DNA from: Tortispora ganteri
Taxonomy: Eukaryota
DNA length: 64,000 bases
Assembly (NCBI GenBank): GCA_003707115.1
Contig: PPNB01000008.1
Span: forward strand, 62,001 to 126,000
Reading direction: 5' to 3'
The position numbers and the translations under genes were made by a program. Position 1 is the first letter of the stretch; each line of letters opens with the position of its first letter. Under the pieces are notes generated by a model, which was not told the origin of the DNA, did no database searches, and saw only the letters and a program-made list of their open reading frames with translations. This document shows, one piece after another, positions 19,940 to 34,522 of the stretch.

Positions 19940-20866
19940 ATGCCTTGCATGGTAGCTGTGCATATTGGCGCAGGCGTACATAATGTTTCACGATACAATA
20001 AATACCGTGATTTGATTAGAAGAGCGTGTCAAGCAGGGATAAGATGTGAGAATGCACTAGACGCAGTTGTGGCGTCAGGATCAATACTTGAAGATAGTGA
20101 TTTGACAAATGCTGGATGTACGTCTAATCTTACAATTGACGGGACTTTTGAGTCAGACGCGGCTGTAATGACAGACATAGACGGTGTGATGGCATCAGTA
20201 GGCGCGGCATGTGACGTTGTGGAACCATTACGATTGGCACAGATTCTAGCACAGTCAAAAAGTGCAAATGATCTGGTCGCGCCGCGTATGATTGTCGGGC
20301 TTGGGGCCAAACAGCTAGCCCGAACGCATGGACTGCGGCTACTGGAAACCTTAAAAAATACAAATAATGATAATGTTACAGATACAATTGGCATAATAGC
20401 ATTAGATGAGTCTGGATGCCTAGCGGTGGGCACCAGTTCCGGTGGGCCGTTGAATAAAACCACCGGCCGTGTAGGCGCAGGCGCGCTGCTTGGAGCAGGT
20501 CTATGGATATGTAAGAACGAGATACATAAAACGGCGGTGTGCATGACAGGCGTTGGCGAAGACATTATTTCGAAATGTATGGCCCATACTATTAGCGAAA
20601 GGTTACTGAAATTTGAAGACGAGTCTGAAATGATAAGTGACTATTTCGCGAAAGAAGTGCTAGACCAGCCGTGTCAATTGGGCGTACCCATGATAGGTAT
20701 TCTTGCAGCGAAAGTGTTGGAAAATGGTAAGATAAGTGTCGTTTATGGACATTGTACAAAGTCCATGGTGGTAGGGTATGGACGTCACGCAGATGCTATA
20801 GAATTTGAATTCTCACAGACGCAGCGAGCAGGAAATAGTTATGTAGTAGGTGGTGCAATTGTGTGA
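19940..20866 (+). CDS. Ntn-hydrolase, asparaginase-2/Taspase1-like
   Basis: AVHIGAG, LEDSDLTNAG, autocleavage site D-T in VTDTIG, and SSGG..K.GRVG. Confidence 0.85.
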   Translation: MPCMVAVHIGAGVHNVSRYNKYRDLIRRACQAGIRCENALDAVVASGSILEDSDLTNAGCTSNLTIDGTFESDAAVMTDIDGVMASVGAACDVVEPLRLAQILAQSKSANDLVAPRMIVGLGAKQLARTHGLRLLETLKNTNNDNVTDTIGIIALDESGCLAVGTSSGGPLNKTTGRVGAGALLGAGLWICKNEIHKTAVCMTGVGEDIISKCMAHTISERLLKFEDESEMISDYFAKEVLDQPCQLGVPMIGILAAKVLENGKISVVYGHCTKSMVVGYGRHADAIEFEFSQTQRAGNSYVVGGAIV

Positions 20867-21871
20867 TTTTGCGTGTTGACCTTTTTTTTCAACTTCTTTT
20901 TTGGAACAACCTGTGGTTTAATAAAGAACTTAGCAAGCTCTTCTGGATCGTATTTGCTGCCGCACACCATACACGACTTCGTGGAAGGAACTGAGCAGTA
21001 CACTGAGAGACAAACACTGCACACATAGCCTATGCTGACGACTTTCTGGTGACAAAAGCAAGAAGCTCTGAAATCTACATTGCTTTGAGAAGGCAACGCC
21101 AAGTAATTGCGAATAGACGGGTTCGGCGAGTATACGGACATTAAGTACTGCAAAATTCCTGAAGGGTGATCTGGTCGCAAGAATGTGCCTGAAGTTGCAT
21201 CTGCTATTTGCTCTAGAAACACCGAACTTCCATTTAGTTTGCATATATCAACGGGTATACTGAGTTTTTGCGCTGTGAACATGGCATTCATGCAAGCAAT
21301 ATATTGCGATGGTTCGTCTTCAGAGACACTTATTGCCAATATCCGCGACTGATAGCCGCCATGCCCGATGCTGTGAGCCGATAGTTTGTTGGCATAAGAT
21401 AGAGCCATAGACAAAGCTCCAGCGAACTTGACTGAATTAGATGTACTGTTCTGAGAATTTTCAAGTGAATTAATTAACGCGTCGATGATTACTTGGTTGA
21501 CTATTTGGAAAGGCCGGTACATTTGACCATCCGCTTCGATCCTGGTAGAGTCAGTTAACTCTGTGGCTGGGTACAAGATCTTTGATTTATGAGGCCCGCA
21601 AGAAACTACTAACACCTTATTTGATTCTTTTAGCGATAAATGTGCGTTAATAAACACAAGAAGAGAACTTATAATGCGGCGAAAGTCTACCTTCTCCCTG
21701 ATTCGTGCCCATTGTGCGCCATTAACATCAATAATGATACCTAGCAACGCCGCTTTTGCAGCTTTTTAGTTAGAATTAAAGATTTAAAGAAAGATTATTA
21801 TTGAATTAGAACTCACCAGTTTCACTGCTGGATGTTTGCTGTGCATGCAATGACGAATCAATAGCATCCAT
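20839..21871 (-). CDS. TFB4: TFIIH subunit p34; two exons (21817-21871 and 20839-21761)
   Basis: vWA core (FINAHL, ALSMALSY) and zinc finger VDFRASCFCH...GYVCSVCLS; exon 1 MDAIDSS... splices in frame. Confidence 0.9.
21762..21816 (-). other. Spliceosomal intron, 55 nt, in TFB4
   Basis: GTGAGT donor, CTAAC branch point, AAG acceptor; restores the frame to an MDAI start. Confidence 0.85.
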
Positions 21872-22029: not shown

Positions 22030-23154
22030 CTAAGGATTGCTATCAGAACAGTCCGAATCAAATACGGGTAGTTTAGGGAGAGCATTATGGTACCATGATC
22101 CGGCAGTGAATGCAAATTCCTCGTTGCACGTATAATCTCTGTTTGTTGCACCATATATCTCGCCTAAAGCGTTCAAGACATCTTTGATTTGTTTTGCGTA
22201 CGTGCGACCTTTTGTGTCGACGTTTGCGTCTGACATAGCCGCATTCCAAATAGCAGCGCCTCCAATCAAATCTGCCTCGAAAGCCTTGGTCTCAAACGGT
22301 GAAAGTTCAGTGTTGAACATCTCATACAGTGCCTCAGGAGTAGTATAATCATTGATCGTGTCAGGATTGGCGTACAATCCAGCATAAAACTTGATGTTGA
22401 TATTGGCAAACTTGTTTGTGGACAGATGGTACCCGAACAGATGAATGTCCTCTTCATATACATCAGCCTGACATTTGTACAGATCATAAAATCGCGGGAA
22501 TATAAAGTCAATATCGGCAACGGCAAGCATGTTGTGATACCAGGTACGGGCGTTTAAGCATTCAGGAGAGACACTGACATATACCGGTTTGGTGCTATGC
22601 AGCTCACTCTTCATGTTCATGTAAAACTCCGGGGAGAACGGTTCAATGGGGTTTTCCTGGTAAGTGGGATTAATGTGGATGTCGAAACCATCAAGCACGA
22701 CATCGCCGAAGGGGCGCCGGTAAGCGGGGATGGTGTCAACATTCATGTAAAGCTGATCTAGCTGCTCTACCAGTCTTGAAGGATAATCTTCAGCGATAGG
22801 CGAGCCATTTGAATCGACCAAGTCAATAGAGAGTAAAACAATTTTGTTTTTTGACTGGCAGAACTTTATGTCCTCTGCAAGAGCTTCGAACTCTTCGGGA
22901 TAATTTTCACGGTTACATGGTGTTACTCTTTCGTCGTATTTGCACAATAAGGGGATGTTTAAATTGTCCAATTCGTTTGATAAATTGCCCAAAGAAGATA
23001 TGACTAAAATATCAACTGAATCATCTTGACAGTATTCAGCGAGGGACGTCTTTGCTGGTTTTTGACCCCAATACAGAGCAACATTTGTTCTGGATAAAGG
23101 ATTGAAAGCTAAAACTTCTAGAGCAAAGCAGAAAACAATTAAAAAGCGGATCAT
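22030..23154 (-). CDS. Secreted GH18 chitinase-like protein, predicted catalytically inactive
   Basis: Signal peptide, YWGQ, AEDIKFCQ, RPFGDVVL; catalytic motif reads DGFDIHIN instead of DxxDxDxE. Confidence 0.85.
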   Translation of the reverse strand: MIRFLIVFCFALEVLAFNPLSRTNVALYWGQKPAKTSLAEYCQDDSVDILVISSLGNLSNELDNLNIPLLCKYDERVTPCNRENYPEEFEALAEDIKFCQSKNKIVLLSIDLVDSNGSPIAEDYPSRLVEQLDQLYMNVDTIPAYRRPFGDVVLDGFDIHINPTYQENPIEPFSPEFYMNMKSELHSTKPVYVSVSPECLNARTWYHNMLAVADIDFIFPRFYDLYKCQADVYEEDIHLFGYHLSTNKFANINIKFYAGLYANPDTINDYTTPEALYEMFNTELSPFETKAFEADLIGGAAIWNAAMSDANVDTKGRTYAKQIKDVLNALGEIYGATNRDYTCNEEFAFTAGSWYHNALPKLPVFDSDCSDSNP

Positions 23155-23979
23155 TTTAGACTGAAGATAAAATGAAGAACAGGAAATATTGCATATTTAT
23201 AGGTATATCCTGATTATTATTTGTTTCAGATTTGTAATGGCTATACGAGTATTACATTTACTTACATGTTTCATGGAGTATTTACTGCTATAAAAAACAT
23301 ACCTTTTAGGTATAAGTACCAAATTGAAATATTTACATAGGTGACTTTCCTATATTGAACGATTCACTGTGACTGCACCAAGACCAATTATCTTCAAAAG
23401 AGAATTTCGAGAATCACACCCCTAAACAGGGATTTTTTGTTGATCAGTTTTTAACTGTTTTTTGGTTTCTATTTAAACTCTAAAAATGGTCTTGAAATGC
23501 ATATATTTCAATGAAAAATAGAAAATAATATATTTACTACAGCGTCACCAATAAATTCGCAAATATCGTCGACAGTAATATCCAGTTGAGACTTTGTTCA
23601 ACGTCCAGTCAAACCGTGAATGTATTAAGGTTTTAATGACATTATAAGTAATCGCGTTTAATCGCAATCACATCTTTAATCACAGAGAGCCACTTTATAG
23701 CAGCACCAAACAAGAGTGACAAAAATTATTAAAAATAAATATGAACTTTAGCATCTAATTATTGCCGTTAGATTATGAGCCGTACATGTGATATCAGCGT
23801 AGTTGAAATATAAGTGAGAAATCCTTTTGAACTATATTCTTATTTAAGTTATATGAAAGGTTGCTAGTAACACTAGTTCTATCTACACTTTGACACACTC
23901 AAAGAGATGCCGTTTTCAATAACATTACACTTGTTTTAGCAGAAATGTGAATTGATTATATGTAAGAACTTGTATATAC

Positions 23980-24975
23980 TTAAACAACTTTTTGCTTTTT
24001 TGCCTCAAGCTCAAGGAGAATTGACTTCAAACGATTTGCAAACGTCTTGCCGTTCTCATCCACATTTATATCGGAACACGTTGCCTCCCAGATTGCCACC
24101 CCAGCGAAGTTTTCTTGGTTAAATGACGAAGATAATTTATCACTGAGAGTATTGAAATTTAAAGCATTTCTAATAGTAGCAGGCGCTGCGTCAAATGTGG
24201 CAAATATTTTGATATCTTTGTTCTTCGATAGCTTGTTCTTCTTATCTGCTACTTTGTTGACCCAATCTTCGAGGTTGAACTCGTCAGAATTAATTGAACA
24301 TGATTCTTCAAAAGAGAAATAAGGTAACACGAAATCGAAATAATTTTTTGCAAGTACTTCAGTTGTCCAGGGCTCAGTTAGACTGCATCCTTTCATTGAA
24401 AGACCAATGTACTTATTGGAAAACTTGGAAGACTGCTTAGACATATTCTCTCGCAGCTCTTTAACGAAAACATCTTTTTCATTCATGGCCATACTGGTAG
24501 AATTGAAATTGATTGTAAACCCATCAAATGCGAAATCGCCAATAGGACAAGGCTTTACTAAAAACGAATCGCACAGTTTTCCTGCCACAGATATCATCTC
24601 ATCAGGCGTCATAACTTTTGGAACGTCCGGTTGAATTATTGACAATAAAACTGGTTTTCCCTGCGACTGACAGAATTTGATATCTTCTTCTAATTCTTGC
24701 ATGCGCTCATTGCTATTCTCCTTATTGCAATAGGTATCATCACAAAATGTAGATAATCTCAACGTGTCGTATTTTTGGGGATCAGTGAAGTCTGCCAAAT
24801 GCATAAGAACAATCGCATCATTTGTATCATCTGTGCAATATTTTCTCAATCGTGATTGCTCTTGCAATTTTCCTACACTGTTTTGACCCCAGAACAGAAT
24901 GACGTTTGAATGACTGTTCAGATCAAAAGCCTTGATACCGACAGAAAGGAATATCAATAATACAAAGTACTGCAT
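23980..24975 (-). CDS. Secreted GH18 chitinase-like protein, predicted catalytically inactive (start moved to MQYFVLL)
   Basis: Signal peptide, FWGQNS, EDIKFCQSQGK, NFAGVAIWEA; catalytic motif reads DGFTINFN. Confidence 0.85.
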   Translation of the reverse strand: MQYFVLLIFLSVGIKAFDLNSHSNVILFWGQNSVGKLQEQSRLRKYCTDDTNDAIVLMHLADFTDPQKYDTLRLSTFCDDTYCNKENSNERMQELEEDIKFCQSQGKPVLLSIIQPDVPKVMTPDEMISVAGKLCDSFLVKPCPIGDFAFDGFTINFNSTSMAMNEKDVFVKELRENMSKQSSKFSNKYIGLSMKGCSLTEPWTTEVLAKNYFDFVLPYFSFEESCSINSDEFNLEDWVNKVADKKNKLSKNKDIKIFATFDAAPATIRNALNFNTLSDKLSSSFNQENFAGVAIWEATCSDINVDENGKTFANRLKSILLELEAKKQKVV

Positions 24976-25759
24976 ATTGGAGTTTTGGTTTTCAAGTGAA
25001 TTTGTGTAAAAGCCTTCAGCTATACACACATATATATATGCATGTACATTGGCTCTAGTATTACCTTATTGGGTTATCATTATACATATCTACGACTGCG
25101 GAATATTTAACAATATACTCCACCTTTTGGTGTACATACAATTCCGCTTCGATGATATCTTGATGTATAATTAGTACTTGATCTATAATGGGAAGTGCAG
25201 CCGAGAATTCAACTTGACCTTGAATTTATACCAGCGTCTTTACGTTTGCAACGGAGATTATCATCACGGTTTTTAATGAAAGGAGAGGTTTTAATGTGAG
25301 AATTTTCTTTCTGCTACTCATATGCGTATCATCACCTAAGAGCGATCTAATTTGGAACTAAGTACCGTTAATGAATGAGATCGGATCAGGTTTTTGGATC
25401 TTGTGTTGAGCAGAAATAATCAGTGTTTCTGGTTAACTCGTTTATTCATTTTACAATTACTTGATACGGTAGTTAATTAATGCTTAGGTAGCACAATAAG
25501 TGGTATCACCAACACCTTTTTGGGCTAATGTGGCATCGCTAGGTACAGAAGAAAAACAACCTCATTAAGAATAAAGTTACAACAACGATGAAATGATCAA
25601 CAGTGTATCTGCAATAGGCAATACACGAAAGTAATGATTTTATGTATACTTGATAATAATACGAATTTTGAAGCTAAGATTACAATTTTCCTTTTCAAAA
25701 TAGCCAATAATCATAATAAATAACACATATGTTGTTTTTAAAAAATAAATATCAAAAAT

Positions 25760-28093
25760 TTACTCAAAACTTCCTGAAACGTACATCGTTAAGTAGTTCA
25801 GATCTTGTCGAGGAATTCTGTCAATGACGATTCTGTATTTACCATTCTCTAGACGCTCTAGTTTGCCAAGAGTGCTGCCCCTCACTATATGGTCAGAAGT
25901 AAACTCAAATGTGAAGCCCTCAGACAATGTATTTCCTGTATTCTCAACGACATTAATGACTGCGCCGAACGAGTTCTCGCCAATCACTTCAGGCTCGATT
26001 TGTACGCTTATACTGTCTGACTGAGGTCCAATTATAGAATGAGAATGCACTGCATTATCCGCAAGGGCTCTGAGTTTGGGATGAAGGCGATGGAGAGGCA
26101 CAAACTCGCGTTTGGTCTTGCTAGAGGTGGAGGGACATACGGCTTCAGATCCAGTTGCGTAGTCGCAGATGATAGACGAACCAAAAGGCTTGCAAGCGGT
26201 TCCAGGAGCACATGCACGAACCACCCATTCGTTGTGGGCGCAAACAGCAAAATCAGTGCCGCTGCAGCGGTACTCGCCGTCAGTAGAACAGAAAGATCCA
26301 GAGTCTATGCAGCCAGTTGCAGTAGTAGGTGGTTCTTCTACCGTGGTATGTTCAGCAGCTTCAGTAGTAGTATCCGGAATATTTGTGACGGTGACGACAG
26401 GATCATCAGTTTCAGTGGTAGGAGGGTCGACAGGATCAGGAGTTTCAGTGGTAGGAGGGTCGACAGGATCAGGAGTTTCAGTGGTAGGAGGTTCGACAGG
26501 GTTTACAGGACCAGCACCTTCTCCTGGTGTAACACTTTCAGGCTCCCGAATAGTAGTAGTCCATGTGTTTTCGGTCGGATAGACAGTGATAGTGATAGTG
26601 ACACCTTCAGATATCGTAGTCTTAACGACTACATCAGTAGTGTAGGCGTTTGTAGTCTCGTACGTCGGAGCAGCAGCCGTAGTAGTGTCAGAAGTTTGAT
26701 CAGCAGTAGACTTGTGCGTTGAGGCTGCAGCAGTGGTATCAGGAGTCCACCAAACTTGTGTAGATGTTTCATCAGCAGCAGTGGTATCAGGAGTCCACCA
26801 AACTTGTGTAGATGTTTCATCAGCAGTGGTATCAGGAGTCCACCAAACTTGTGTAGATGTTTCATCAACAGCAGATGTATCAGGAGTCCACCAAACTTGT
26901 GTAGATGTTTCATCAACAGCAGTGGTATCAGGAGTCCACCAAACTTGTGTAGATGTTTCATCAGCGGCAGTAGTATCAGGAGTCCACCAAACTTGTGTAG
27001 ATGTTTCATCAGCAGCAGAGGTATCAGGAGTCCACCAAACCTGAGTCGAAATCGGCGCAGTAGTACCGGCAGCAGCTGCAGTTGAAGTGGCTATGGGAAC
27101 AAGTACAGCAGACGATTGGTCAGATCCGGAACTTCCAGAGAGGAGGTAGTTCTTAGCATGTTGCGCGTAATTAACATCGCTGCTTACCATATTGTTGTAA
27201 GCCTGAGAAGCATCCCACATCATGACACCTCCAAAATTTGCAAAATTCTTTACCTGGTCAATGTAGCTGTCGAGTTCAGAGGCGGAAACGTAACCTGATC
27301 CAGCCGCTGTGGAGGAGGCAGGTACACCAAGGAAGATCTTAGCGTTCGGGTTGTAGGAGCCGCCACTAGTGACTTGATTTTGCCAATAGTCAAAGTTGAA
27401 AGACGTAGTACCTACTCTGCAGTAATTGTTGTAGAATTGAACAAACAAAAAGTCAATATATGACCGTTGAATAGCATCACCCATCCATGCGTCAGGATAA
27501 GGGCATTGCGGGGCAGCCCCAATATAAATGTTAGAGCCACTAGAGGAGGCAAGTGAACGTAATTCTGTTACTAAAGCAGCATAACCGGTCGAAGTACCAC
27601 CTTCAATGTCAAGATCAAAACCATCGACCACTGAGTCGCCAAAAGGACGTGTACTGGAAGTACCTGCACCAAAAAGATCCCATAAAGTTTGAGCAAATTC
27701 TTTAGCCTGAGTGTCGGAAGTAAAGCCATAAGATCCAGCAGCTCCACCAAGAGATAAAAGAACAATTTTTCCGTTGTTTTGACATGTTTTAATATCTTCA
27801 GCAATAGTATCGCACTGCAAAAGTGATGTACCCGGGAAATAAGTTCCCTCGCAAGCATTTGCGAAGTTAACCTCGGGAAGGCCACCAGCTCCGAAGAAAG
27901 TCATCAAAAAGGATAATATAATAATATCAGTAGTATCATCTTGACAGTAATAAGAAAGACGTTGTTGAGTACTAGAACCGCCTGCGGAGTTCTGGCCCCA
28001 ATACAAGACCATATTGGTTTTCGCATTGGCGTCAAAGGCTAGCACAGTTGAGGCACAAGTAATAATTGCCAATGCTACTTTTGAGAACAGCAT
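25760..28093 (-). CDS. CTS1: Class III GH18 endochitinase (Cts1-type) with repeat stalk, CBM19 and C-terminal extension
   Basis: Signal peptide, YWGQNS, SLGGA, intact DGFDLDIE, APQCPYPD, QFYNNYC, GGVMMWDAS; Cys-rich CAHNEWVVRACAPGTAC module. Confidence 0.92.
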   Translation of the reverse strand: MLFSKVALAIITCASTVLAFDANAKTNMVLYWGQNSAGGSSTQQRLSYYCQDDTTDIIILSFLMTFFGAGGLPEVNFANACEGTYFPGTSLLQCDTIAEDIKTCQNNGKIVLLSLGGAAGSYGFTSDTQAKEFAQTLWDLFGAGTSSTRPFGDSVVDGFDLDIEGGTSTGYAALVTELRSLASSSGSNIYIGAAPQCPYPDAWMGDAIQRSYIDFLFVQFYNNYCRVGTTSFNFDYWQNQVTSGGSYNPNAKIFLGVPASSTAAGSGYVSASELDSYIDQVKNFANFGGVMMWDASQAYNNMVSSDVNYAQHAKNYLLSGSSGSDQSSAVLVPIATSTAAAAGTTAPISTQVWWTPDTSAADETSTQVWWTPDTTAADETSTQVWWTPDTTAVDETSTQVWWTPDTSAVDETSTQVWWTPDTTADETSTQVWWTPDTTAADETSTQVWWTPDTTAAASTHKSTADQTSDTTTAAAPTYETTNAYTTDVVVKTTISEGVTITITVYPTENTWTTTIREPESVTPGEGAGPVNPVEPPTTETPDPVDPPTTETPDPVDPPTTETDDPVVTVTNIPDTTTEAAEHTTVEEPPTTATGCIDSGSFCSTDGEYRCSGTDFAVCAHNEWVVRACAPGTACKPFGSSIICDYATGSEAVCPSTSSKTKREFVPLHRLHPKLRALADNAVHSHSIIGPQSDSISVQIEPEVIGENSFGAVINVVENTGNTLSEGFTFEFTSDHIVRGSTLGKLERLENGKYRIVIDRIPRQDLNYLTMYVSGSFE
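26397..26500 (-). repeat. 30-bp coding tandem repeat, about 3 copies (PVDPPTTETP)
   Basis: Repeated tttcagtggtaggagggtcgacaggatc units. Confidence 0.9.
26726..27046 (-). repeat. 48-bp coding minisatellite x7 (TQVWWTPDTTAADETS)
   Basis: Seven gtatcaggagtccaccaaac cores spaced 48 bp apart (one unit is 45 bp). Confidence 0.97.
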
Positions 28094-32575: not shown

Positions 32576-34522
32576 ATGAGACTTGATACAGTTTCATATG
32601 TATATGCGTTCATGGGAACGTCTATTGGCCTTGCCTTAACGCCTGACCCAATTGACTCCACAGAGCCTGGCGTATCTTCGCCGCTATTTGATCCGATCGA
32701 AATCAGTCCTCCATTGAGTCCTGAAGATATTCGTAACCTATTTAGCCCGGAAGAGCTTGAAGAGATCAAGCGTCTAGCTAATATGACACAGACGCCCGAC
32801 TTTTTAGGCATGTTCAATACCACAGATGATCAGTTCCTGAACGAATCGTTCACACAGATCATCGCAAGGTCACCAGAGACGTTTAGACAGTTGTTAGTTG
32901 CATCTAATCAAGACAGGGCCGCAGAAATGGATGAATCTTTAATGACAGTGCAGGCTCTTCCTGAACACGATGCAGAGCCAGAACCGCGAACTTGGGAATA
33001 CGAACGAATTCCATGGTGGAATTTCTGGAGGAAGGCTAAAGGCCCTTCTCAATCAGAACTGAATTACTACAAGGAAGATGTCGTGAATTTACATCAACAA
33101 CTGCTGGAACTAGCTGCTGACCCAGAAGACGCGCACAGAGAGACTATACGGTACATCACCGATTTGTTATCGTCTCTTAATTTCACAGTTGAAATATACC
33201 CATTTGTAAATGAGTACGGAGAACTGATTAATTGCAGAGAACTCGCTGAATACAGGCCCATTACAGTTGAAGAGTTCCTAGAACTCCCTAATGCCGTCAA
33301 AGCAAACGTTTATGCTTACTACGGTAATCGCACCAGCGCGAGGACTGTTATGGTATCGCATATTGGTGACAATTGGGGCACACAATTGGACGGCGCCAAC
33401 CCGTATAATGTAGAGCCGGAAACACCTTTCAACCGCCACGACCACAAAATTTACGGGACAGGATCTGCCCGGTCGAAGGCATCATTGGCAACAGTTTTGA
33501 CATCTTTTATCAGTCTTTACGCGGAAAACGAGGTTTACCCAGGCGACCTTGCTCTGCTATTTGTTGGCGGAGATGGTGCTCATGGACATGCTATGAGCTG
33601 TGCATCAAATGCAATCCAAGACATTCCTCCTAAAACAGTGCTTTTCTCTACGCAATCTTCTAACAGACTAGTTAGTGCCTACAAGGGACTGATTTGGCTG
33701 AAGATAAAAGGTATAGGCACACCTTCACCAGGCGCTAAAGCGCACAACGGACTGAGCGCCTTGAGCGTGGTATTATCTGCTGCAGACAAGATTCAGAATC
33801 TGCCCATGCCGCGGTCGGCGTTCCTTGGAAAAACCGTAACCAAAATATCTAATATATTTGCCGGTGACCTGACTGAGAACGCACCTACCTCTGCAGTTGC
33901 AGATGTTCTGATCCGCACAACTGCACACACTGACAGGATCTTGCGCATGTTGCGCGGATGTGTGAAAAACCTGACTGGAGTCTCGTTAGACATAAAGGCT
34001 GTCTATGAGCCACTGATTTTAAGCTCATGGGTCTCTGGATTTAAGGCTACTGTCAGCGATGCGCTTACGGACATACCTTTCTTCCGTGTTTCCGATACTG
34101 ACGAGACACCGAATTTTTATGCATATGGCCCGGGTGCGCCAGACACCTACAAAGCAGGTGACGAGAATATACCTGAATATTCGCTATTGAAGGCTGTGTA
34201 CGGGTACCGCAAGCTGATTCAGGCGCTTGGACGGAAACATAAATGGAGCACTGAACCTCAAGAAGGTCGAATAGTGCTTCTGCAAGAACTAGCACACTAC
34301 CTGAAACACATAGGCGCAGTTAAGAAGTACTGTGCGCAGGATTTCCGTCCTATTGACACAGAACTCGCCAACAGGATTTACAACCACCTTAACGGTAACA
34401 AGGAAAATATGCGAGCTGTCAGCTCTGTGGAAGGTGTAGAGGATATGGTTGTTATTGAAGACCTTGATATGGATAAAGACCAATGGGTCAAGCTATCAAA
34501 TGAGCTGATTGACCAAACATAG
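32576..34522 (+). CDS. Secreted M20 (ArgE/DapE-like, fungal type) peptidase homologue, predicted inactive
   Basis: Signal-like MRLDTVSYVYAFMGTSIGLA; NVYAY, GDLALLFV, TDIP, YGPG and AVYGYRKLI follow the fungal M20 layout, but the metal ligands are substituted. Confidence 0.8.
   Translation: MRLDTVSYVYAFMGTSIGLALTPDPIDSTEPGVSSPLFDPIEISPPLSPEDIRNLFSPEELEEIKRLANMTQTPDFLGMFNTTDDQFLNESFTQIIARSPETFRQLLVASNQDRAAEMDESLMTVQALPEHDAEPEPRTWEYERIPWWNFWRKAKGPSQSELNYYKEDVVNLHQQLLELAADPEDAHRETIRYITDLLSSLNFTVEIYPFVNEYGELINCRELAEYRPITVEEFLELPNAVKANVYAYYGNRTSARTVMVSHIGDNWGTQLDGANPYNVEPETPFNRHDHKIYGTGSARSKASLATVLTSFISLYAENEVYPGDLALLFVGGDGAHGHAMSCASNAIQDIPPKTVLFSTQSSNRLVSAYKGLIWLKIKGIGTPSPGAKAHNGLSALSVVLSAADKIQNLPMPRSAFLGKTVTKISNIFAGDLTENAPTSAVADVLIRTTAHTDRILRMLRGCVKNLTGVSLDIKAVYEPLILSSWVSGFKATVSDALTDIPFFRVSDTDETPNFYAYGPGAPDTYKAGDENIPEYSLLKAVYGYRKLIQALGRKHKWSTEPQEGRIVLLQELAHYLKHIGAVKKYCAQDFRPIDTELANRIYNHLNGNKENMRAVSSVEGVEDMVVIEDLDMDKDQWVKLSNELIDQT

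Follow-up and report, generated by a model that had tools for sequence, protein, structure and literature searches.

Two putative GH18 pseudoenzymes with rebuilt grooves, apparently kept by selection beside a Cts1-type chitinase gene in the yeast Tortispora ganteri

Results

A chitinase gene with two Glu-less neighbours

The window, a 64,000-nucleotide stretch of Tortispora ganteri DNA, contains three GH18 open reading frames that lie in the same orientation on the minus strand, none of them with an internal stop (Table 1). We refer to them as gene 1, dead1 and dead2. An earlier sequence-only reading had described one active enzyme followed by two dead copies, and its account of the locus held: the frames and their lengths, the motifs of gene 1 (SLGG and DGFDLDIE), dead1 (SIIQ and DGFTINFN) and dead2 (SIDL and DGFDIHIN), and the marks of a full-length barrel in both dead copies (Y/FWGQ, EDIKFCQ and G..IW) were all found. 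The absence of a stalk and CBM19 from the dead genes was borne out as well, since a tblastn search of the whole window with gene 1 residues 323-777 returned only gene 1 itself and no remnant near the dead genes. Signal peptides of all three products were recognised by the hydrophobicity of the N-terminus and by where the mature protein starts. Each gene has an orthologue in T. caseinolytica, and the three orthologues carry the consecutive accessions ODV91677-79, which indicates synteny in this related yeast.

No Glyco_hydro_18 match was listed for any of the three proteins in the Pfam copy used, and a PA_Ig-like match of dead1 was discarded as noise (E 0.074, 13 bits against a cut-off of 27). 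In Atlas, the top-ranked clusters for dead1 were those of plant GH18 proteins (0.94), a signal at family level only. The codon usage of the dead genes resembles that of their neighbours. Horizontal transfer of the dead genes is not supported, since their composition is like that of the neighbours and their best matches are fungal.

Table 1. Features of the GH18 locus in the T. ganteri window.
Feature	Position	Strand	Description and evidence
Gene 1	25760..28093	-	Intact Cts1-type class III (fungal group B) GH18 chitinase, 777 aa; ScCts1 E 1.9e-88
Gene 1 catalytic barrel	27131..28036	-	SLGG and DGFDLDIE; 17/17 groove and catalytic positions at consensus
Gene 1 Ser/Thr stalk	26321..27130	-	Contains 48-bp and 33-bp coding repeats
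Gene 1 CBM19 chitin-binding module, Cys-rich	26129..26320	-	Pfam PF03427 E 7.1e-5
Gene 1 C-terminal domain, after KR dibasic site	25763..26104	-	Weak CBM2-like lead
dead1, secreted (predicted) Glu-less GH18 barrel	23980..24975	-	331 aa; sequence, model, orthologue ODV91678.1
dead2, secreted (predicted) Glu-less GH18 barrel	22030..23154	-	374 aa; sequence, model, orthologue ODV91679.1
dead2-specific C-terminal tail	22033..22152	-	40 aa, two Cys, both kept in orthologue; low model confidence

Judged by its sequence, gene 1 is an ordinary Cts1-type chitinase, the type known for mother-daughter cell separation (PMC7730094), and no other intact class III gene was found in the genome. It has the layout of a Cts1 orthologue, namely a signal peptide, a class III domain, a Ser/Thr stalk and a CBM19 (23.2 bits against a Pfam cut-off of 20.1). 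The SLGG motif lies at 27743-27754 and DGFDLDIE at 27602-27625; the DxxDxDxE motif and the Tyr and Trp of the -1 subsite are in place. The stalk repeats comprise 6.6 copies of a 48-bp unit (26727-27040) and 3.2 copies of a 33-bp unit (26395-26500). Beyond the KR site lies an additional domain of ~115 aa that is conserved in the T. caseinolytica orthologue. Its likeness to CBM2 (Atlas feature score 0.82) is a lead only, and comparison with the PDB gave nothing better than E 0.65.

Barrels without the catalytic glutamate

The best PDB sequence match of both dead proteins was ScCts1 (E 4.9e-16 for dead1 and 7.7e-21 for dead2). In dead1, SIIQP stands in place of SLGGA, the catalytic motif reads DGFTINFN (24502-24525), Tyr219 replaces the groove Gln, and a new Cys135/Cys143 pair is present. 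In dead2, SIDLV stands in place of SLGGA, the motif reads DGFDIHIN (22669-22692), and the groove floor is made up of His160/Asn162/Arg221/Tyr223. Both proteins thus lack the catalytic Glu, which has become Asn, together with the preceding Asp, and the resulting N-x-N and H-x-N are the same in both species. Predicted structures gave complete (beta/alpha)8 barrels of the hevamine/Cts1 type (class III, fungal group B) for dead1 (pLDDT 89.3, pTM 0.90) and dead2 (pLDDT 75.6, pTM 0.81). Both models match ScCts1, with Z 32.0 and rmsd 2.2 over 274 aligned residues for dead1 and Z 26.7 and rmsd 3.2 over 276 for dead2. Sequences and models therefore agree with the earlier claim of full-length barrels: dead1 and dead2 are class III GH18 proteins that would have no catalytic activity, and both are probably secreted.

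A rebuilt groove with variable loops

We compared 17 groove and catalytic positions, of our own choice, with those of 110 intact enzymes. The intact enzymes keep 14-17 of them, while the four dead sequences of the two species keep 3, 5, 6 and 6; the copies in the window keep 3 and 6, so that 11-14 are changed. Both Gly of the Gly-Gly-Ala loop occur in 110/110 intact enzymes and are replaced by bulky residues in the dead copies, where the -1 subsite Gln has become Tyr or Arg. The strand-8 Trp and the strand-1 W-G-Q are retained in all four dead sequences, and dead2 additionally retains Tyr28, Asp158 and Tyr223. Replaced positions were identical between orthologues at 36/42 and 24/31 in the dead pairs. 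Such a conserved rebuilt floor could belong equally well to a new site for a small ligand and to a groove that has been filled; the changes themselves suggest that the groove is occluded in the dead copies.

The loops on the groove face changed most between the dead orthologues (70/207 residues, against 47/181 in helices and 23/107 in the opposite loops), a contrast chosen post hoc that gave p 0.027 against the opposite loops and p 0.10 against the helices. In intact enzymes, the groove-face loops are instead the more conserved class (0.39 vs 0.55 and 0.57), and the active orthologue pair showed no class difference outside the strands (8/104, 8/93 and 4/49).

If dead1 and dead2 were chi-lectins of the MpChi/YKL type, still binding chitin or chito-oligomers to soak them up, to shield the wall or to act as decoys against toxins that target chitin, then the chito-oligomer groove should be largely retained. 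The class III fold, the lost catalysis and the residues kept in the groove agree with this idea, and MpChi and MrChi are a fungal precedent; MpChi with two substitutions binds chitin (PMC8960721). TCLL has a similarly rebuilt groove, where its authors judged chitin binding to be impossible (PMC3662789), but it binds a GlcNAc monomer at non-canonical pockets. In the Tortispora copies, however, the changes extend well beyond the Glu into the chitin-contacting groove, no CBM19 is present, and conservation is lowest in the groove-face loops. We consider chi-lectin roles such as the sponge or wall shield put forward by the sequence-only reading unlikely. Since the groove was rebuilt and not merely disarmed, chito-oligomers are most likely no longer bound in the canonical subsites.

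The dead2 floor resembles, we presume, His/Tyr/Asn/Arg lyase sites. A new carbohydrate specificity or chemistry would suit this floor, for instance one for anionic sugars like the uronic acids of plants. The orthologue has the same four residues, rotting cacti are the habitat of most Tortispora species, and pectin-degrading enzymes have been gained by other yeasts of cacti (PMC11449361). Against this, the Arg may salt-bridge nearby Asp residues and shut the groove, which is what arginines do in XIP-I, and dead1 carries a different, mostly hydrophobic set. We regard a new specificity as distinctly unlikely.

Constraint on the dead copies

The protein-level tests of constraint were made on one orthologue pair per dead gene (T. 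ganteri vs T. caseinolytica). Identity was 93% in the catalytic domain of gene 1 (ODV91677.1), 73% for dead1 (ODV91678.1) and 75% for dead2 (ODV91679.1, with zero indels over 374 residues), so that the dead pairs, at 25-27% divergence against 7%, evolved some fourfold faster than the catalytic domain of gene 1. The mean BLOSUM62 score of the differences was 0.32 and 0.16 in the dead pairs, against -0.42 and -0.49 under neutrality, and the observed score was reached in 0/2000 neutral simulations for either pair and in 0/1000 at each of four transition biases. Columns conserved across the family changed less often than others (13/76 vs 63/208, p 0.017; 8/83 vs 69/234, p 1e-4), as did strands (10/93, p 2e-4 vs the rest), and signal peptides changed at 4/32. 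The neutral model, which leaves out indels, gives stop-free frames a chance of 0.02 and 0.01.

If the duplicates were relaxed or decaying, with at least one of them being lost and dead1 first, this would explain the fast divergence and the T. caseinolytica dead1 model, which lacks exactly 25 core residues including strand 6 and one disulfide Cys. The gap stems either from a real deletion or from an intron placed by the gene model, perhaps to skip a lesion. A real intron in the window copy of dead1 was rejected: of the nearby GT-AG pairs none excises 75 nt, and the segment forms strand 6 in the model. Decay is nevertheless quite improbable, given open frames on very long stems, neighbour-like codon usage and no frameshift or neutral spectrum of the kind that marks a pseudogene. 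The substitutions are conservative, the strands are conserved and dead2 is indel-free; therefore, despite the gap in ODV91678.1, sequence comparison indicates that dead1 and dead2 are pseudoenzymes kept by selection, as had been proposed, and not decaying copies.

Pseudoenzymes often regulate active paralogues, and the tandem with the active gene is kept in two species, but co-secreted regulators that inhibit, position or stabilise the cell's own Cts1 at the septum are very improbable: fourfold faster change is unexpected for partners of a conserved target, the upstream regions of the genes have no DNA match to one another with an E below 0.33, and ACE2-like hexamers (in raw counts without a chance control) number 4 upstream of gene 1, 1 upstream of dead1 and 0 upstream of dead2.

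Origin and relatives of the dead lineage

Because twelve rare residue states, including Glu to Asn, are common to all four dead sequences, the sequences point to one origin of dead1 and dead2. The earlier view of them as copies of gene 1 fared less clearly. Descent from gene 1 was not rejected (AU test, p 0.17 and 0.34), but trees do not group the dead lineage with its neighbour, which at ~30% identity ranks 17 and 45 of the 110 intact enzymes. A tandem origin from the Cts1 neighbourhood is what we infer.

Four GH18 genes were found in the genome, two of them dead, and no further dead copy. A word-indexed search (0.55-1.75x query length) returned one match for dead1, its T. caseinolytica orthologue, and two for dead2, its orthologue and one intact Mortierella chitinase. 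In a full profile search, the two orthologues scored 529-541 bits, and among the best 150 of 1275 matches no other single-domain protein exceeded 175 bits; two multi-barrel proteins reached 308 and 196. A Glu-less match, P0208, may resemble the fission-yeast chitinase. Six metagenomic loci were obtained from 181 candidates: five held a single intact chitinase, without a dead neighbour that carries the motifs, and the sixth was a 1 kb fragment. Glu-less class III GH18 proteins also occur in Scheffersomyces amazonensis (KAK6200450.1) and Ambrosiozyma monospora (GME75635.1). The earlier claim of no budding-yeast precedent thus stands for descriptions, none of which we found in the literature searched, and falls for sequences.

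Discussion

Animals, plants and a few fungi that are plant pathogens have non-catalytic GH18 proteins, with known roles as lectins, inhibitors and effectors. The scenario that we favour starts from a class III chitinase gene next to Cts1, in the simplest case a tandem duplicate without stalk and CBM19, which would have lost the catalytic Glu once and then duplicated to give dead1 and dead2. Both products would still be secreted, folded and under purifying selection, and chito-oligomers would most likely no longer be held in the canonical subsites. The barrel would then serve as a scaffold whose fast-changing groove-face loops bind protein, and the products would inhibit enzymes or serve as paralogous decoys, much like the plant XIP-type GH18s. 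We propose an inhibitor or decoy because the rebuilt groove and variable loops resemble plant XIP/TCLL-type proteins. Dead class III GH18s of plants are xylanase inhibitors (PMC3045311), and PsXLP1, a dead Phytophthora paralogue, is an inhibitor decoy. The protein ligand and its identity are guesswork, and we hold the protein-binding role tentatively, at somewhat less than an even chance. We note that relaxed constraint explains the variable loops equally well, and that with the kept Trp and W-G-Q some sugar stacking may remain.

In a more far-reaching form, which we consider doubtful, the proposal would make this the first repurposed GH18 family of budding yeasts, a counterpart of plant XIPs from a cell-separation chitinase locus whose diversifying groove-face loops, in rotting tissue, bind and neutralise the enzymes or toxins that competitors, insects or host plants produce. 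Bolder still, the conserved dead2 floor would be a new anionic plant glycan site, perhaps with new chemistry.

With two of its four GH18 genes dead, conserved and heavily rebuilt, a free-living yeast offers an independent case of GH18 repurposing in a small system, two secreted single-domain proteins beside an active relative. If protein binding is true, it would be a new type of inhibitor or decoy in yeast ecology. Databases label dead1 and dead2 merely as glycoside hydrolase family 18, which is a caution for annotation.

Comparison with known systems

Gene 1 shares its layout and motifs with ScCts1 and other fungal group B enzymes (PDB 2UY2; AfChiA1; MpChit35, 9HJ7). These are also the best fold matches of the dead barrels (Z 32.0 for dead1, 26.7-26.9 for dead2), which differ in lacking the catalytic Asp and Glu, the Gly-Gly-Ala loop, the stalk and CBM19. 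The budding-yeast proteins KAK6200450.1 and GME75635.1 likewise lack the Glu, but they keep SLGG and 9 and 13 of the 17 groove positions, have long Ser/Thr tails, and do not group with the Tortispora dead pair in trees. The Moniliophthora effectors MpChi and MrChi are fungal secreted GH18 proteins with a broken catalytic motif as well; with one or two substitutions each, they have kept the ability to bind chitin oligomers, in contrast to the extensive changes in the copies of this saprotrophic yeast. The aphid CHL family (bioRxiv 10.1101/2025.08.07.665532) is similarly lineage-specific, highly diverged, secreted and without DxxDxDxE; it is an animal, salivary family tied to plant avirulence, with a function that is hypothetical too.

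PsXLP1 (GH12) is a dead paralogue of a secreted glycoside hydrolase that was kept for protein binding, though of another family and 67% identical to its active paralogue. Close mimicry of Cts1 is less likely, since the dead copies are only ~30% identical to it. By their sequences and models, dead1 and dead2 are like the plant proteins XIP-I, XAIP, CaclXIP, concanavalin B and TCLL, each a secreted single class III barrel with a rebuilt groove and no chitinase activity expected, and the plant non-catalytic proteins appear in their fold lists at Z 22-27. XIP-I, however, keeps the Glu. Fungal chitinases outrank all plant entries by sequence and fold, which argues against descent from plant class III chitinases; because fungal structures rank above plant ones, the dead copies are of separate, fungal origin.

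Organization of the GH18 array

The three co-oriented GH18 open reading frames proposed in the sequence-only reading were recovered where it had placed them (see table). Gene 1 carries intact SLGG and DGFDLDIE motifs, a Ser/Thr stalk rich in repeats and a CBM19 module, and by analogy with Cts1 is probably an ordinary cell-separation chitinase (PMC7730094). In its neighbours these motifs are altered as that reading had it, to SIIQP and DGFTINFN in dead1 and to SIDLV and DGFDIHIN in dead2. ScCts1 was the top PDB sequence match of both. A search of the whole window found no stalk or CBM19 remnant elsewhere, in agreement with the claim that both copies lack these parts. The signal peptides it had assigned correspond to a hydrophobic N-terminal stretch in all three proteins that ends at the mature barrel start, a putative signal peptide by hydropathy. 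Housekeeping genes flank the array, Tfb4 at one end, DUF1689 and threonine synthase at the opposite end. Since Pfam matches the Tfb4 frame only from profile position 84 onwards, a 5' exon is likely to lie in the interval that separates this frame from dead2.

Genes and features of the array, its surroundings and one unlinked locus (L004, outside the window)
Feature	Position	Strand	Description
Gene 1	25760-28093	-	777 aa ORF, internal stops 0
Gene 1 C-terminal domain	25763-26104	-	beyond CBM19, after KR dibasic site
Gene 1 stalk repeat	26727-27040	-	16-residue unit with Trp-Trp pair, 6.6 copies
dead1	23980-24975	-	331 aa ORF, internal stops 0
dead2	22030-23154	-	374 aa ORF, internal stops 0
Tfb4 ORF	20839-21522	-	
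M20 peptidase-like ORF	32576-34522	+	648 aa, hydrophobic N-terminus
Unlinked GH18 gene	L004 1378-2610	-	410 aa, DGIDIDWE intact, without obvious signal peptide

The C-terminal domain of gene 1, kept in Tortispora caseinolytica, gave a weak CBM2-like lead (Atlas 0.82) and may be released by cleavage as a separate module. The stalk repeat, with fewer copies in T. caseinolytica, has an aromatic content unusual for a Ser/Thr stalk. The genome holds at least four GH18 genes, a lower bound for an assembly in 1044 contigs; the fourth is an unlinked intact enzyme of another type. The M20-like frame gave a weak Pfam match (E 8.7e-6) and nothing among PDB sequences at E 0.001. Its metal-binding motifs look degenerate against what we take to be the consensus. 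Paralogues at two other places in the genome share 29% and 26% identity with it, and one of them (locus L013, 463 aa) is similarly degenerate-looking and apparently secreted; together they are possibly a second secreted pseudoenzyme family.

Orthologues in Tortispora caseinolytica

The nearest named relative of all three genes was the budding yeast T. caseinolytica (Trigonopsidales). Because its orthologues carry consecutive accessions in the window's gene order (ODV91677.1, ODV91678.1, ODV91679.1) and come from contigs of identical length, the array is present in a second species, as read from accession order and not from DNA. The T. caseinolytica clade is given as ~11 million years old and the genus as ~180 million (part of PMC11449361). 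The active barrel is 93% identical between species (21/301 positions differ), dead1 73% (76/284) and dead2 75% (90/358). The dead2 alignment is gap-free across all 374 residues; that of full-length gene 1 has 11% gaps, located in the stalk. The T. caseinolytica dead1 model stops 6 residues sooner than the window copy and has a gap of exactly 25 residues that takes in strand 6 and one disulfide Cys. This gap may be a mispredicted 75-nt intron, an intron call that skips a lesion, or a real deletion.

Predicted fold and rebuilt groove

AlphaFold2 predicted complete barrels for dead1 (pLDDT 89.3, pTM 0.90, 75-row alignment) and dead2 (pLDDT 75.6, pTM 0.81, 64 rows, tail low-confidence), from input alignments of mostly intact enzymes that bias towards this fold. 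The best structural match was ScCts1 for dead1 (Z 32.0, rmsd 2.2, 274 aligned) and MpChit35 (Z 26.9) and ScCts1 (Z 26.7) for dead2 (rmsd 3.1-3.2). Top matches of both were fungal class III chitinases; hevamine and the non-catalytic plant proteins XIP-I, XAIP, concanavalin B and TCLL came next, at Z values lower by ~3-6. These models bear out the full-length barrels claimed earlier. A new Cys135/Cys143 pair in dead1 and a two-Cys tail in dead2 are retained in the orthologues.

We scored 17 groove and catalytic positions of our own choice, part of them assigned from what we take to be the ScCts1 and AfChiA1 sites. As reference we took the first 110 of 178 intact enzymes made non-redundant at <80% identity. 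Positions were mapped by motif spacing from the hevamine subsites (accessible part of PMC3662789). All 17 were kept in 89/110 intact enzymes and never fewer than 14, whereas dead1 retains 3/17 (its orthologue 5/17; alignment at dead1 strand 6 is uncertain by 1-2 residues) and dead2 6/17, as does its orthologue. Both catalytic acids, the strand 2 Phe and the Gly-Gly-Ala loop are lost, and the Gln of the -1 subsite has become Tyr in dead1 and Arg in dead2; W-G-Q and the strand 8 Trp remain. The GH18 catalytic Glu is the acid (PMC3662789, same part), so dead1 and dead2 would be unable to hydrolyse chitin, and their description as catalytically dead holds at the level of sequence. Other conserved positions are eroded too (39/68 and 35/68 kept, against a mean of 65 in intact enzymes), and part of the groove change is therefore general divergence. 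New floor residues are mostly common to orthologues (36/42 in dead1, 24/31 in dead2).

Constraint on the dead genes

Selection was tested at the protein level, comparing window DNA with T. caseinolytica proteins, and neutrality was simulated by mutating window codons at random up to the observed orthologue divergence. Mean BLOSUM62 scores of the orthologue differences were 0.32 (dead1) and 0.16 (dead2) against -0.42 and -0.49 simulated, values reached in 0/2000 simulations for each gene and in 0/1000 at each of four transition biases. The chance of a stop-free frame under simulation was 0.02 and 0.01, respectively. Hydrophobic-to-polar changes were fewer than simulated in dead1 (7 versus ~14) and not significantly so in dead2 (16 versus ~20; 147-168/1000 simulations as low). 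Between orthologues, differences were rarer in columns conserved over the 110 intact enzymes than in the remaining columns (p 0.017 for dead1, 1e-4 for dead2). Changes in the dead pairs fell at 10/93 strand positions, 4/32 in putative signal peptides, 47/181 in helices, 23/107 in opposite loops and, most often, 70/207 in groove-face loops; in intact enzymes groove-face loops (0.39) are less variable than helices (0.55) and opposite loops (0.57), a modest contrast examined post hoc across differing divergence scales.

By these tests the fold is under constraint, which is compatible with partly relaxed selection; they are no measure of dN/dS. Relaxed decay of one or both genes, dead1 first, to which the 25-residue gap including strand 6 could point, is unlikely given the conservative substitutions, conserved strands and gap-free dead2 orthologue. 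The same evidence upholds the earlier proposal of selected pseudoenzymes: dead1 and dead2 are very probably selected, non-chitinolytic genes, a conclusion much firmer than any binding role.

Origin of the dead lineage

All four dead sequences have in common twelve residue states that intact enzymes rarely show, among them Glu to Asn and a Cys that has moved, and they form one clade in a 30-row tree (support 99/95, on long branches that can attract). This points to one inactivation followed by one duplication. Descent from gene 1 does not fare as well. The dead lineage joined gene 1 in none of the trees built, AU tests did not reject such a clade (p 0.17 when both dead pairs are placed there, 0.34 when dead1 is), and gene 1 ranked 17 and 45 among the 110 intact enzymes by identity to dead1 and dead2 and 97 of 110 by rare states in common, so adjacency is the sole argument for copies of gene 1. 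Stems of 3.7-3.8 changes per column, versus 0.35-0.40 between orthologues, imply great age or an early burst.

Distribution

Protein searches, a profile search (best 150 of 1275) and 6 metagenome loci yielded no further close relatives of dead1 or dead2. In a search-derived, biased sample of 250 other class III domains, the catalytic Asp or Glu was missing from 7, the Glu from 6. Four of the 7 are named, among them the budding yeasts Scheffersomyces amazonensis (P0163, KAK6200450.1) and Ambrosiozyma monospora (P0243, GME75635.1, on a 2.7 kb contig); Glu loss thus recurs in yeasts. Both proteins fall outside the Tortispora dead group and keep 9/17 and 13/17 groove positions, respectively. As they retain SLGG, they appear more promising as chi-lectins than the Tortispora pair, and groove rebuilding as deep as in that pair was seen nowhere else in the analysis. 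P0163 has a hydrophobic C-terminus resembling a GPI signal. P0007, P0127 and P0129 are chitinases whose single chains hold 3, 5 and 2 class III barrels in tandem, and some of these barrels have no catalytic Glu.

Full-text literature searches, with most subscription journals outside their scope, turned up no description of dead1, dead2 or any budding-yeast GH18 pseudoenzyme. In the part of the cactus-yeast paper covered (PMC11449361), a chitinase KEGG term had near-zero weight, and 'chitinase' and 'CTS1' were absent from 12 of 19 supplements (files 13-19 and the figshare data lay outside). The absence of a budding-yeast precedent holds for descriptions in the literature searched and fails for sequences. 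Dead1 and dead2 are a real, conserved and apparently undescribed budding-yeast GH18 pseudoenzyme pair, found in two related genomes only.

Possible function and comparison with known systems

Our preferred, though tentative, reading is that dead1 and dead2, putatively secreted barrels unable to hydrolyse chitin, act as protein-binding scaffolds. The constrained core would serve as the scaffold and the variable groove-face loops would bind a changing protein target, a division that fits the observed pattern of core constraint and loop variability. It is rather unlikely that they are chi-lectins binding chitin or chito-oligomers: W-G-Q and the strand 8 Trp remain, but a pure chitin sponge should keep its groove, and the sponge proposed earlier is weakened by its loss. 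The Moniliophthora sponge MpChi, by contrast, has two substitutions and keeps oligomer binding (parts of PMC8960721 and PMC13220806). A new glycan site in the rebuilt groove is distinctly unlikely, and regulation of gene 1 highly improbable. TCLL also has a rebuilt groove, judged unable to bind chitin there, and binds GlcNAc at other pockets (PMC3662789, in part). For the protein-binding scaffold, the models would be the XIP-type GH18 inhibitors, in which the barrel binds protein (part of PMC3045311), and paralogous decoys, in which a dead paralogue does so.
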